Sequence record: PQ416618.1
DNA from: Escherichia phage vB_VIPECOMC06
Strand: one strand, 5' to 3'
Length of the DNA: 64,000 nucleotides
Position numbers and translations under genes: made by a program. Of this stretch, positions 11,968 to 15,923 are shown one piece after another (the stretch's first letter is position 1; each line of letters starts with the position of its first letter). The notes under the pieces were generated by a model that was given only the letters and a program-made list of their open reading frames with translations, had not been told where the DNA came from and did not search any database.

Positions 11968-12183
11968 ATGTTATATGACCCAAGCGGTTGTTCTGAAGAT
12001 GGTGTGATTGTTCTGGAGCCTGAGCATCCAGTTGGTGATGTATATCGCACCGTTGAAGTATGCGAATGTAATTTCGTTGAAGGTAATACTGGCGGAATTT
12101 CCATTGAGCAAGATGATGATGTTATTTACCTGGATGCAAGCCAAGTAGAAGCTCTTTATAACATTTTAAAACATAATCGGTAG
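11968..12183 (+). CDS. hypothetical protein (~71 aa), member of tandem paralog pair
   Basis: Starts MLYDPSGCSEDGVIVLEPE; SD GAGGAAA. Confidence 0.4.
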   Translation: MLYDPSGCSEDGVIVLEPEHPVGDVYRTVEVCECNFVEGNTGGISIEQDDDVIYLDASQVEALYNILKHNR

Positions 12184-12221
12184 TTTACGTCTTGGTAGGA
12201 CTATGATATAGTAATCCTACC
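12183..12221 (+). promoter_or_regulatory. early promoter with flanking inverted repeat (PeSL-like)
   Basis: GTTTAC, TGATATAGT; GGTAGGACTA / TAATCCTACC arms. Confidence 0.55.
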
Positions 12222-12528
12222 AAAACAAATGGAGAACAAAATGAAACTTTTGCTTATCGCTTATGTTGTAGTACAATACAATTATCCGATGTTTACTTAT
12301 AACATGGTAAACGGCATAGTGAATCTTATTGAAACGAGTATGGTAAAATGACCCGTGAACAAGCTAATAAATTGATGGACCTTATCCATGACTTACGTGA
12401 AGCCGATTCAGATTTGAATGATGTAGCTTATCACGCGGTAAATGATAACGGAGACTTTTATGAAAATCAGGTTGATGCTTGCCAGAATGCTTTGGTGAAT
12501 TTTGTTGAAACTTTAATTGGTGAATAAT

Positions 12529-13059
12529 ATGAAAACTGTAATTGAAACGACCGAACTGTTCGGTGATTTGACTATCGAAAAACGTGGTAATGTATACGTT
12601 CTGACTCAGGAAGATGATGGTATTACTATTTGTCCTATGGAACTAGACGAGATTTTGAAACTCAATCCGCCTGGTCATGCATCGGCAATTAATATTGGTG
12701 GAGACCTTCAGGCTCGTTTTTATCATGGGCTTTATAACGGTGCTAATATCGAAACTGAAGACAAATGCCTTTCTATCGATAACTGGAAAACATTCGTTGC
12801 TAAGGTGAAAGAATTCTTGGAATCCGAACCACCTGAAAAGGCTAAACTTAAATGGGGTATCAGTCGTGGTGCTTACATTATTAATCCAATAGCTCCAAAC
12901 TATACCACGACTTTGGCTGTCATGAATTCTTATGAAGATGGTGATGTAGTAACTATTCGCCAAAATGATGATTTACGTTCACATGTTACTACATTTACCA
13001 AAGACGAAGCTGTAGCTCTTAAAGCTTATCTCGATTCCATTATCCCAACTTTGAAATAA
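12529..13059 (+). CDS. hypothetical protein (~176 aa)
   Basis: ATG at 12529 (track start is a TTG). Confidence 0.5.
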   Translation: MKTVIETTELFGDLTIEKRGNVYVLTQEDDGITICPMELDEILKLNPPGHASAINIGGDLQARFYHGLYNGANIETEDKCLSIDNWKTFVAKVKEFLESEPPEKAKLKWGISRGAYIINPIAPNYTTTLAVMNSYEDGDVVTIRQNDDLRSHVTTFTKDEAVALKAYLDSIIPTLK

Positions 13060-13068
13060 GGAATTATT

Positions 13069-13542
13069 ATGATTATCAATGAAAACTCTTGGCACTTTAA
13101 AATTTATGCCGCGTTCAATAGTACATGGAATCGTCCGAAAACGTTGTGTGTTTATTTTTGGAAAACGTTAATCCCGGTATTGGCTGTTTCAATTATTGGA
13201 TTTGCTATTTTAGCCGCAGTCACAATTATTGGCCAGGAATTTTTAACTAGATTCTTTGTTTTTAGTAGTCTATGGACATTAGTTCCGGCCTCAATTGGCG
13301 TAGGCATTTTAATGGTAGCAGTCATGGCTTTTATTGCTGCCGGGGCGGTAATTGGTCCGTCTTGGTTGTTAGACAAATATAACGACAGAAAATATTATAA
13401 AGAAATTGAGCTCATTGCGCAAAACCAAGAACGAATTAAAAATGGACTTGAACCTATTGAACGTAAGAAATCATTAATAGGTGAATACCTTAAAGCTCGT
13501 AAAGAAAAAGTCTGTCCTACTCTTGAATATAAGGCTAAATGA
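13069..13542 (+). CDS. predicted membrane protein (157 aa)
   Basis: Three hydrophobic helices; C-terminal charged tail. Confidence 0.5.
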   Translation: MIINENSWHFKIYAAFNSTWNRPKTLCVYFWKTLIPVLAVSIIGFAILAAVTIIGQEFLTRFFVFSSLWTLVPASIGVGILMVAVMAFIAAGAVIGPSWLLDKYNDRKYYKEIELIAQNQERIKNGLEPIERKKSLIGEYLKARKEKVCPTLEYKAK

Positions 13543-14528
13543 TGAAAACAATTATGAAAGGCTACTTTGGTAGCCACCTTTATGGAACGTCTACTCCTGA
13601 ATCTGACGTCGATTTTAAAGAAATTTATGTCCCTCACGCTCGTGATATCTTGACCGGTAACGTTAAAGAACACATGAGCAAGAACACGAATAACACATCT
13701 TCTAAGAACACAAAAGACGACGTGGACCATGAGTTGTATAGTCTCAAATATTTCTTTAAACTAGCTGCAGACGGTGAAACCGTCGCATTAGATATGCTTC
13801 ACACTCCACAAAGTCTAGTAGTTAAATCTGATTTGCCTGATGTATGGAAGTATATTCAAGATAACAGGTCTCGTTTCTATACTACTAACATGAAATCTTA
13901 TTTAGGGTATGTCCGTAAGCAAGCTTCTAAATATGGTGTCAAGGGTTCTCGACTGGCTGTTCTTCGTCAAGCCCTTAAACGTTCTAATGAATGGGGACAA
14001 TACTTTGATAATGGTGCAGTAATTCGTTTATCACATATGAAGAATGTTCTGCCTATAGGTGAATTTGCTTCATGGGTTGAAACAGAAAACGAGAAAACAG
14101 GTAAGCAAACATTCTATAATCTGTTAGACCGTAAATTCCAAGACACATTAACCAATAAAGAGTTCAATGCCATCCTGGTTAAACTGGAAGAGAACTATGG
14201 TGAACGTGCTCGTAAGGCAGAAGCTAACGAAGGTATTGACTGGAAAGCATTGAGTCATGCATGTCGTGGTGGACTTCAATTATTGGAAATTTACAAAACC
14301 GGCGACCTGGTTTACCCACTTCAGGATGCTCCATTTATTCTCGATGTTAAGCTTGGTAAACATACTTTTAAAACTGTACAAGAATTCCTAGAAGATATCG
14401 TTGACCAAGTTGAACATGCGTCAGAACAAGCTGCCAAGAACGGTATGCAACAAAAAGTAGATATGAGTTTCTGGGATGACTTCCTTGAACAGGTCTATCT
14501 CGAAAATCATAATTCTTACTATAAATAA
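13539..14528 (+). CDS. predicted pol-beta-superfamily nucleotidyltransferase (329 aa)
   Basis: N-terminal GSHLYGTSTPESDVDF (GS...SDxD nucleotidyltransferase signature); ATGA coupling. Confidence 0.55.
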   Translation: MMKTIMKGYFGSHLYGTSTPESDVDFKEIYVPHARDILTGNVKEHMSKNTNNTSSKNTKDDVDHELYSLKYFFKLAADGETVALDMLHTPQSLVVKSDLPDVWKYIQDNRSRFYTTNMKSYLGYVRKQASKYGVKGSRLAVLRQALKRSNEWGQYFDNGAVIRLSHMKNVLPIGEFASWVETENEKTGKQTFYNLLDRKFQDTLTNKEFNAILVKLEENYGERARKAEANEGIDWKALSHACRGGLQLLEIYKTGDLVYPLQDAPFILDVKLGKHTFKTVQEFLEDIVDQVEHASEQAAKNGMQQKVDMSFWDDFLEQVYLENHNSYYK

Positions 14529-14559: not shown

Positions 14560-14823
14560 ATGAAAAAATTGGTAATTGGTTTATTCGCAGTAATGATGGC
14601 ATTCTCTGTTGGTGCTACCACGGGTGCAGCCGGCGGTAACCAGACTTCTGGGCCTTCTAATGGTTCGGTAAATGCATCACATTCTCAGGGTATTGAGAAC
14701 ATTAAATCAAGCTATATTAATAGCACGGCCGGACAAGCAACTGAAGCATGGTCAAAGGGACGAGTAGTTACTCGCTCCGTATTCTGTGATATGCCTAATT
14801 ATGTTGCTAAGTGCGATAAGTAA
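14560..14823 (+). CDS. small secreted protein (87 aa)
   Basis: Signal peptide MKKLVIGLFAVMMAFSVGA; followed by GGGACC-TTCG-GGTCCC stem-loop. Confidence 0.45.
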   Translation: MKKLVIGLFAVMMAFSVGATTGAAGGNQTSGPSNGSVNASHSQGIENIKSSYINSTAGQATEAWSKGRVVTRSVFCDMPNYVAKCDK

Positions 14824-14826
14824 ATG

Positions 14827-14843
14827 TGGGGACCTTCGGGTCC
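14827..14843 (+). terminator. stem-loop, putative terminator
   Basis: GGGGACC-TTCG-GGTCCC; weak T-tract (TTTAGGGGG). Confidence 0.4.
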
Positions 14844-14875
14844 CTTTAGGGGGTTAAAATATTTTTAAAAAAGTA

Positions 14876-14904
14876 GTGTACATGCTTTTAGGATATGTTA
14901 TTAT
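14876..14904 (+). promoter_or_regulatory. early promoter variant
   Basis: GTGTAC, 17-bp spacer, TGTTATTAT. Confidence 0.5.
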
Positions 14905-14942
14905 AGACCTATCGAAACGAAATGAGTAAATTGGAGAATAAA

Positions 14943-15923
14943 ATGTTCAACGTTCAAATCAAAAAAGGTATCTATCGTAATAACGAAATCTCTGGTTCTT
15001 ATGTTGCCACAAAGACATGGTTCCCGGCAAAGCTTAATCCTGAATGTTCCCACTTAGGTGATGGTAAAATTTTCGTTATGATTGATGGTTCTGAACGTGG
15101 AGTATGGGTCTTCAAATCAGACATCGTAATGGAAGGAGTTGAGACATCACCAGTTGCAGTTGTTGAAAGCACTGAAGATATGAAAACTCGTATCAACAAA
15201 CGCTTTAAAGTAATGAACATGATGACGAATGGCATTATCGATGGCAAAATTCGTTCACTCATTATTTCAGGTGCAGCTGGTATTGGTAAGACGTATTCTC
15301 TGGATAAAGCACTTAATAACGCTAATGATAATGGTTTCATCAAATACAAAAGCATTAATGGTAAAATCTCTGGTATTGGCCTTTACGAACAACTTTGGCT
15401 CAACCGTGATGCAGACAGCGTTCTCTTAATCGACGACGTTGACGTATTCTCAGATATGGACATCTTGAACCTTCTTAAAGCAGCATTAGATACTGGAGAT
15501 AAACGCAAAGTTTGCTGGAGCACTGCGTCATCTTATCTCGATGATAAGGGTATTGATAAAGAATTTGAGTTTGAAGGTACTATCGTTTTCATTACAAACG
15601 TTGATATCGATAAAGAGTTAGAACGCGGTTCGAAACTTGCTCCACACCTTCAAGCTTTAGTATCTCGTTCAGTGTATCTCGACCTTGGAGTACACTCTAA
15701 TGAAGAGATTATGGTTCGAGTTGAAGATGTAATATTATCTACTGACATGATGCAGAAACGTGGTCTGACAGATGCAGAAACGTATAAAGCATTGTCCTGG
15801 ATGAAGGCTAACGTATCTCGTCTTCGCAATGTATCATTACGTACGGCTCTTTACGTAGCAGATTTTATTTCAACTGATAAAGATGGTTGGGAGGAAATCT
15901 CTGAAGTTACTTTACTGAAATAA
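14943..15923 (+). CDS. AAA+/P-loop ATPase (~326 aa)
   Basis: Walker A SGAAGIGKT and Walker B VLLIDDVD; ATG at 14943 preceded by GGAG. Confidence 0.6.
   Translation: MFNVQIKKGIYRNNEISGSYVATKTWFPAKLNPECSHLGDGKIFVMIDGSERGVWVFKSDIVMEGVETSPVAVVESTEDMKTRINKRFKVMNMMTNGIIDGKIRSLIISGAAGIGKTYSLDKALNNANDNGFIKYKSINGKISGIGLYEQLWLNRDADSVLLIDDVDVFSDMDILNLLKAALDTGDKRKVCWSTASSYLDDKGIDKEFEFEGTIVFITNVDIDKELERGSKLAPHLQALVSRSVYLDLGVHSNEEIMVRVEDVILSTDMMQKRGLTDAETYKALSWMKANVSRLRNVSLRTALYVADFISTDKDGWEEISEVTLLK

Follow-up and report, generated by a model that had tools for sequence, protein, structure and literature searches.

A predicted long-form RlaP nucleotidyltransferase, NrdC.11, of a T4-like Escherichia phage and its possible part in tRNA repair

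A 64,000-nucleotide stretch of Escherichia phage vB_VIPECOMC06 (sequence record PQ416618.1; this whole stretch is referred to below as the window) carries, at 13539..14528 on the plus strand, an open reading frame (ORF) of 329 amino acids with an ATG start, which a preliminary description of this DNA had placed correctly. Judged by its sequence, this is a long-annotated and already catalogued phage gene, namely the ortholog of T4 nrdC.11, and its product very probably belongs to the RlaP family of nucleotidyltransferases (NTases). What is new here is comparative only: RlaPs include a long-form subfamily, whose genes are paired in tandem with those of short RlaPs and, in uncultivated viruses, share operons with genes for Pnkp and RNA ligases. 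Taken as a whole chain, the reading that NrdC.11 is an RNA 3'-end fill-in enzyme, which aids phage tRNA repair together with Pnkp and Rnl1, is considered slightly better than an even chance. T4 Pnkp and Rnl1 are the classic case of a virus repairing RNA that was cut by a host suicide nuclease, and it is supposed that certain host nucleases, RloC among them, foil this repair by removing a nucleotide as well.

The gene can be identified as the nrdC.11 ortholog because the window protein and the T4 product show 77.7% identity along their full length and because, in the tk-nrdC early region, the gene order is kept (y05I/mobD.1, nrdC.11, terminator/promoter, nrdC.10). In the window, a y05I-like gene (PF24449/PF24448) is followed by a membrane-protein gene, nrdC.11, an 87-aa ORF, a terminator-like hairpin with a promoter-like site, and the gene of an nrdC.10-like AAA protein, and the order in the Mosigvirus record NC_041863 agrees with this; the T4 order is mobD.1, mobD, nrdC.11, an annotated terminator, an early promoter and nrdC.10. 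The window belongs to Mosigvirus, the RB69-like T4-type coliphages, with whose DNA the region is 97-98% identical (e.g., Escherichia phage 308Ecol101PP and E. coli O157 typing phage 3). A "nucleotidyltransferase" of Escherichia phage vB_EcoM_SA79RD has exactly the same amino acid sequence (100% identity) as the window protein, which matches the phrog_388 family ("nucleotidyltransferase") over residues 1-329 (E=4.5e-126). A prediction of T4 NrdC.11 as a nucleotidyltransferase (COG3541) was made already in 2006. The ORF is far beyond chance, since homologs are present in 1520 phage records, and since, among 1.84 billion cluster representatives searched exhaustively with HMMER, 3242 are related at E<=1e-3 and 742 of these, with ~320 aa, at E<=1e-30; of the 150 best, nearly all have ~300-350 aa and align with the query along its entire length.

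Many phage records and UniRef entries label this protein "thioredoxin", and a Pfam scan shows no thioredoxin domain in it. The gene nrdC itself encodes the phage thioredoxin/glutaredoxin, and the label is apparently an error that has spread from the locus name nrdC.11. In phage JSE (NC_012740.1, 54603-55271) and phage FL20, the nrdC.11 match falls into two BLAST pieces, which lie within only ~670 bp and together account for 86% of the query, and this suggests that the gene is shortened or rearranged in RB49/JSE-type phages.

The RlaP family (PF10127, "RNA repair pathway DNA polymerase beta family") was reportedly named by Burroughs and Aravind in 2016. The window protein scores 49.5 bits against PF10127, for which the cut-off is 23 (E=5.8e-13), over profile positions 23-143 of 249 only, and the family is also matched by 144 of 145 diverse full-length homologs. 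In the alignment of these 145 homologs, which are 35-52% identical to the query, G11 and R243 are invariant; the N-terminal residues that are invariant or at least 90% conserved comprise G11, S12, D23, D25, K27, N57, D61, D63 and D85, and those of the C-terminal part Y124, Q128, K131, Y132, G136, R138, Y220, G221, R223, D234, W235, K236, S239, H240, R243, K271 and G273. The Pol-beta NTase signature, i.e., a G-S loop, a D-x-D and an acidic residue on a later strand, is complete with G11, S12, D23, D25 and D61/D63. Its first part lies in residues 11-26 (13569..13616), which read GSHLYGTSTPESDVDF, and would provide the nucleotide-binding loop (G11-S12) and the first two metal-binding carboxylates (D23-x-D25); its second part, D61-V-D63 (13719..13727), falls on strand 62-68 of the structural model described below, with D63 as the probable third catalytic carboxylate. 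Residues D234-W-K-A-L-S-H-A-C-R243 (14238..14267) form the signature motif of the long form (DWKAxSHAxR), in which A237 and A241 are at least 90% conserved as well, and which may contribute to RNA or NTP (nucleoside triphosphate) binding. Since all of the conserved residues are present, the window protein looks like an active enzyme. The preliminary description was right both in reading the N-terminal sequence as an NTase hallmark and in assigning the protein to the Pol-beta-type superfamily, which the profile score, the conserved acidic and loop residues and the meaningful structure matches, all of them to NTases, bear out. With "unknown substrate" it said less than could be said, as the gene has its ortholog in T4 nrdC.11 and its product belongs to a named family, two bacterial members of which extend RNA 3'-OH ends.

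These two members are PfRlaP and PaRlaP, short forms that are encoded between rtcB and rtcA in Pseudomonas (Carruthers, Fatma and Huang, December 2025, bioRxiv 10.64898/2025.12.29.696909). Both enzymes transfer one or two nucleoside monophosphates (NMPs) to the 3'-OH of RNA, accept any NTP and also dATP, and prefer Mn2+; DNA, protein and 3'-phosphorylated RNA are not used, and E. coli proteins were left unlabelled. On a mimic of cleaved tRNA the broken end is preferred, and when a tRNA was repaired after the loss of one anticodon-loop nucleotide, its aminoacylation was raised by RlaP. The product carries a 3'-OH, the end that is required by a 5'-phosphate ligase such as Rnl1, and in the authors' proposal RlaP serves as an antidote to nucleotide-excising nucleases, e.g., RloC and PaOrf2. 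The crystal structure of PfRlaP comprises an N-terminal NTase domain and a C-terminal helical domain, the last helix of which packs back on the NTase domain (bioRxiv 10.64898/2025.12.29.696909).

An AlphaFold2 model of the window protein, built from the 145-homolog alignment, has a predicted local distance difference test score (pLDDT) of 94.4 and a predicted template modelling score (pTM) of 0.87. It consists of an N-terminal alpha/beta core of the Pol-beta NTase type, which ends at about residue 115 (residues 1-115; 13539..13883), and a mostly helical C-terminal domain (residues 116-329; 13884..14525), i.e., ~215 residues with nine helices (among them 119-132, 136-155, 206-228, 235-254, 264-271, 277-300 and 309-328) and a three-stranded beta-sheet module at residues 177-201 (14067..14141). 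The strands were assigned by DSSP to 177-184, 188-195 and 198-201, and sequence conservation there is only moderate. The long terminal helix 309-328 follows the NTase core and the helical domain. The "about 270 residues of unassigned helical domain" of the preliminary description are indeed mostly helical, but they amount to ~215, include a beta-sheet, and are less unassigned than this wording implies. In a PDB set that did not include the PfRlaP structure, no close solved structure was found by Foldseek, the best match being kanamycin nucleotidyltransferase (E=4e-3, TM 0.32-0.39, ~9% identity), and a sequence search of the same set gave nothing meaningful (best E=0.26). The predicted viral structures that match the model are other phage and giant-virus "nucleotidyltransferases", and the check by structure prediction and Foldseek that had been proposed for this protein thus returns nucleotidyltransferases as its only meaningful matches.

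The relation between long and short RlaPs is best seen in bacteria. A scan for the DWKAxSHAxR motif, with one genome per prokaryotic species, yielded 156 cellular relatives, the best 80 of which were examined and align with essentially the entire window protein at 33-52% identity; 376 viral relatives were recovered, and the counts of viral loci given below rest on the 80 that were returned. In at least 17 of the 80 bacterial loci, the gene directly downstream of the long RlaP encodes a short RlaP of ~255-290 aa (among them L028, 6004-7746; L053, 6001-7802; L008, L011, L016, L021, L029, L037, L049, L057, L062, L066, L069, L073 and L074). The stop codon of the long and the start codon of the short gene often overlap. 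At L069 a fusion of the two forms was considered and rejected, as the apparent fusion is an over-extended ORF in a GC-rich contig and the locus is a tandem pair. In the short RlaPs of L028 and L053, the match to PF10127 spans the full length (E=3e-51 to 2e-62). When the profile of the long family (A1) was compared by hhalign with that of 14 short neighbors (A2), residues 1-181 of the long form aligned with residues 14-186 of the short form (Prob 94.7, E=6e-8), and here D63 stands opposite the invariant D73 of the short form and D85 opposite its invariant E95. Beyond residue ~181, the last ~150 residues of the long form do not align with short RlaPs, and a forced global alignment is uninformative past ~150. 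NrdC.11 would therefore be best described, as far as sequence comparison goes, as a representative of a distinct long-form RlaP subfamily with a C-terminal domain of its own. Their standing side by side in these loci speaks against redundancy of the two forms, and the recurrent two-NTase module suggests a division of labor or a heterodimer.

Around homologs outside the T4-like phages, long RlaP genes are found in RNA-repair operons, the products of which were assigned by Pfam. The cluster at locus L028 (uncultured Nitrosospira contig CAADGK010000054.1, 1558-12060) encodes on one strand Ro60/TROVE, RtcB, RtcA, a long RlaP that is 40% identical to the window protein over residues 1-325, a short RlaP, Hen1, a MoxR-type AAA ATPase and a VWA/DUF2201 metallopeptidase-like protein. 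This cluster is followed at ~12038-13336 by a Pnkp-like match, and the set of RNA-repair genes is unusually complete. Locus L053 (Asticcacaulis) combines Hen1, Pnkp (kinase-phosphatase-ligase), a long RlaP and a short RlaP. Three further loci join the long form to T4-type enzymes. On the 4-kb contig of L007 (62-3803, one strand), the long RlaP is followed by an NT5C-like 5'-nucleotidase, a T4-type Pnkp (AAA_33 and HAD_PNKP), a 143-aa ORF without a Pfam match and a T4 Rnl1-type ligase, and the first three genes have overlapping ends; this contig was binned to a Bathyarchaeota metagenome-assembled genome, and is possibly a viral fragment that was binned into an archaeal genome. On a 53.7-kb IMG/VR viral contig (L159), the ORFs of a long RlaP, an RNA ligase (PF09414) and a Pnkp abut or overlap, and at the viral locus L136 an Rnl1-type ligase gene lies upstream, followed by a kinase gene that overlaps the long RlaP gene. 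Counting RtcB, RtcA, Pnkp, Hen1, Ro60 and T4-type Pnkp/Rnl1, at least one RNA-repair gene is present within 6 kb in 20 of the 80 cellular loci (13 of the 42 that have full flanks), and a repair gene or a second RlaP in 34 of 80. Because such genes usually occur in at most one copy per genome, this proximity is judged to be far above chance, which is an estimate from copy number and not a computed statistic.

In T4-like phages, the corresponding partners are encoded by pseT (Pnkp) and rnlA (Rnl1), which the close Mosigvirus relatives of the window carry. The numbers of phage records with NrdC.11, Pnkp and Rnl1 are 608, 635 and 636 for Escherichia, 286, 286 and 287 for Klebsiella, 83, 83 and 83 for Shigella, 75, 77 and 77 for Aeromonas, 69, 70 and 69 for Acinetobacter, and 56, 56 and 56 for Enterobacter phages, respectively. 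Classical PrrC repair requires only Pnkp and Rnl1 (bioRxiv 10.64898/2025.12.29.696909).

By analogy with the short forms, NrdC.11 is expected to use NTPs and a divalent metal for the template-free addition of one or a few nucleotides to the 3'-OH of RNA, and we infer that it acts beside the phage healing and sealing enzymes because the gene neighborhoods, the repair model of the preprint and the 3'-OH product fit together. In the proposed sequence of events, tRNAs would be cleaved by host anticodon nucleases, and Pnkp (pseT) would strip the 2',3'-cyclic phosphate and phosphorylate the 5' end. NrdC.11 could then refill nucleotides that had been trimmed off the 3' end of the 5' fragment, e.g., by nucleotide-excising nucleases of the RloC type, before Rnl1 (rnlA) would seal the nick between 3'-OH and 5'-phosphate. 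A more specific version, which is put forward tentatively and is possible rather than probable, holds that T4-type tRNA repair has a third, hitherto missing enzyme and that this is the long RlaP, which would act independently of a template, undo the damage of "repair-proof" nucleases such as RloC so that translation could still be rescued by Pnkp and Rnl1, and differ in substrate or nucleotide specificity from short RlaPs by virtue of its unique C-terminal domain with its DWKAxSHAxR motif and beta-sheet. If NrdC.11 does refill such gaps, a third step would be added to a 35-year-old pathway and the retention of nrdC.11 in nearly every T4-like phage would be explained. The enzyme could also serve as a tool for the addition of nucleotides to RNA 3' ends. 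The gene being catalogued, the residual interest lies in the role of NrdC.11 in the phage and in the features of the long-form subfamily.

Several points weigh against a fill-in role in phage tRNA repair. The experiments on RlaP cover the short form only, namely PfRlaP and PaRlaP, and not the long form or NrdC.11, and the long form shares with them just its N-terminal ~180 residues, while it is the C-terminal domain that is expected to hold the RNA substrate. In a profile-profile comparison, long and short RlaPs are not significantly similar in their C-terminal halves (E=0.027, Prob 1.8; this non-significant alignment pairs DWKAxSHAxR with K.Y.YALR of the short form), and long and short RlaPs may differ in substrate or product. 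The preprint is not peer reviewed; in its similarity network of PF10127, T4 NrdC.11 is placed in cluster 5, not in cluster 1a, and is labelled "of unknown function" (bioRxiv 10.64898/2025.12.29.696909). With regard to the phage itself, T4 withstands the laboratory deletion of nrdC.11-mobD.3, homologs of Pnkp, Rnl1, RtcB, RtcA, Hen1 and Ro60 are absent from the 64-kb window, and in T4 pseT and rnlA lie ~80 kb from nrdC.11, which they do not adjoin in T4-type phages. The near-equal counts of NrdC.11, Pnkp and Rnl1 are compatible with a shared pathway, but they are confounded by shared ancestry within one phage family. A recognised repair gene is missing from the vicinity of the long RlaP in 60 of the 80 cellular loci.

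Some of these points would suit an RNA 3'-end NTase that works outside the ligase pathway, for example in rebuilding CCA ends on phage or host tRNAs or in tailing host RNAs for decay or protecting phage RNAs, and this is regarded as unlikely. The chemistry would be the same, i.e., the transfer of NMPs to RNA 3'-OH ends, the separation of nrdC.11 from pseT and rnlA in T4-type genomes and the many cellular homologs without a repair gene within 6 kb would be accommodated, and PfRlaP and PaRlaP also label full-length species of tRNA and rRNA size in total RNA (bioRxiv 10.64898/2025.12.29.696909). However, tRNA genes occur near homologs in 3 of 40 loci only, which is no enrichment, and tRNA and Rfam scans of the window found no tRNA gene and nothing else. 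The recurrent operon neighbors are healing and sealing enzymes and not tRNA maturation or decay factors, and as for CCA rebuilding, the characterised RlaPs lack a CCA-like nucleotide specificity (bioRxiv 10.64898/2025.12.29.696909).

The preliminary description had listed CD-NTases and toxin-modifying NTases among the possible kin of the protein, and neither affiliation finds support. A protein-modifying NTase resembling the antitoxin MntA, which AMPylates HEPN toxins, could neutralise a toxin of host defense or another host protein; the score of the window protein against the NCBIfam MntA model NF047752 is 12.9 bits with a cut-off of 60, no HEPN or toxin-like gene adjoins nrdC.11 in the window, where it is flanked by a membrane-protein gene and a small secreted-type ORF, the neighbors that are kept elsewhere are RNA-repair enzymes, and with E. 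coli proteins left unlabelled by the characterised RlaPs this role is improbable. PADLOC, which was searched for CD-NTase and other defense nucleotidyltransferase models, gave no match to the window protein, and this argues both against protein modification and against the making or mimicking of a nucleotide signal, be it a cyclic oligonucleotide as in CD-NTases or an oligodeoxyadenylate as in Hailong HalB, by which host signalling immunity would be disturbed. The sole basis for such a signal is a core-fold match to HalB, which covers the generic NTase core only and is accompanied by no sequence similarity to solved structures, and as family and gene context indicate polymeric RNA ends as the substrate, it is very improbable. 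Least credence of all is given to a small-molecule NTase that, like kanamycin nucleotidyltransferase, would act on a metabolite or an antibiotic: the weak structural match that is its sole basis (TM and identity as given above) has no counterpart in the phage or bacterial context, in which nothing hints at a small molecule. The fill-in reading with Pnkp and Rnl1 is kept as the preferred one, at the strength stated at the outset.

The immediate surroundings of nrdC.11 bear on its start codon and on a further claim, namely that it is coupled by an ATGA overlap to a membrane protein. The upstream gene (13069..13542, plus strand) encodes 157 aa with hydrophobic stretches at ~25-60 and 62-102 and matches phrog_944 ("membrane protein", E=5e-52); its TGA at 13540-13542 overlaps the ATG at 13539-13541. 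A second in-frame ATG at 13542 would give an alternative product of 328 aa, the form that is used in most database entries. The sole Shine-Dalgarno-like element, AAGG at 13531-13534, is located 4 nt before the ATG at 13539 and 7 nt before that at 13542, and the upstream stop codon is overlapped by either candidate start. The overlap at 13539-13542 is therefore real, yet the partnership is not conserved: outside Mosigvirus and some of its close relatives the phrog_944 gene does not adjoin nrdC.11 directly, but lies 0.5-2 kb upstream in many T-even relatives, is replaced at this place by mobD in T4, and is absent from 44 of the 80 viral and all 80 cellular loci. Because the membrane gene is so often distant or absent, the overlap reflects tight local gene packing and not a conserved two-gene module, and a functional pairing of NrdC.11 with the membrane protein was rejected, the adjacency being limited to close relatives.

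Downstream of nrdC.11, on the same strand, an 87-aa ORF (14560..14823; phrog_2243, E=6.5e-38) encodes a hydrophobic, signal-like N-terminus and a middle part rich in Gly, Ser and Asn; it has kin in 1 of the 80 viral loci and is the last gene before a terminator-like hairpin (14839-14855 plus a T-rich tail), which is followed by a sigma-70-like promoter (14877-14904), both elements (14839..14904, plus strand) being pattern matches from a consensus scan only. The nrdC.10 ortholog (14922-15923, 333 aa, phrog_1250), a conserved T4-type ATPase, lies directly downstream of the nrdC.11 transcription unit and shows P-loop matches below threshold (AAA_22, AAA_16, nSTAND3) and, near its C-terminus, a weak match to HTH_37. 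On the other side of the membrane-protein gene, 12517-13059 encodes a 180-aa protein that matches the T4 y05I-like family, labelled "putative transcription factor", in each of the family's two halves (PF24449, E=1.9e-36; PF24448, E=1.1e-13). The true start of this protein is probably a few codons past the listed TTG; its NC_041863 homolog is annotated with 176 aa.

Compared with known systems, T4 NrdC.11 (UniProt-era Y05K; COG3541/PF10127) resembles the window protein in its place in the gene order and in its predicted fold family, and differs in that T4 has the homing endonuclease gene mobD directly upstream, where the window phage has the membrane-protein gene; the extra 87-aa ORF downstream of nrdC.11 in the window phage is not found at that position in T4. 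Hailong HalB (PDB 9dbh) and kanamycin nucleotidyltransferase (PDB 1kny/6nlt) are 9-15% identical to the window protein, with ~150 residues that superpose, but HalB polymerises dATP into a signal and kanamycin nucleotidyltransferase acts on an aminoglycoside hydroxyl, and these substrates and the biology around them differ from those proposed for the window protein. PfRlaP and PaRlaP have in common with it the PF10127 family, the GS, DxD and third-Asp motifs, the plan of an NTase domain followed by a helical domain, and homologs in RNA-repair operons. In contrast, the window protein is ~60-75 residues longer, its beta-sheet module and DWKAxSHAxR motif fall into the C-terminal region that does not align, and its kin, T4 NrdC.11, is in network cluster 5 and PfRlaP and PaRlaP are in cluster 1a; with the tandem co-occurrence in bacteria, the long form and the PfRlaP-type short form are probably not interchangeable. 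The proposed pathway partner of NrdC.11 is the T4 tRNA repair system, in which Pnkp (pseT) and Rnl1 (rnlA) counter the anticodon nuclease PrrC, and whose genes are dispersed in T4-type genomes, whereas long-RlaP homologs share operons with T4-type Pnkp and RNA ligases at L007, L159 and L136.

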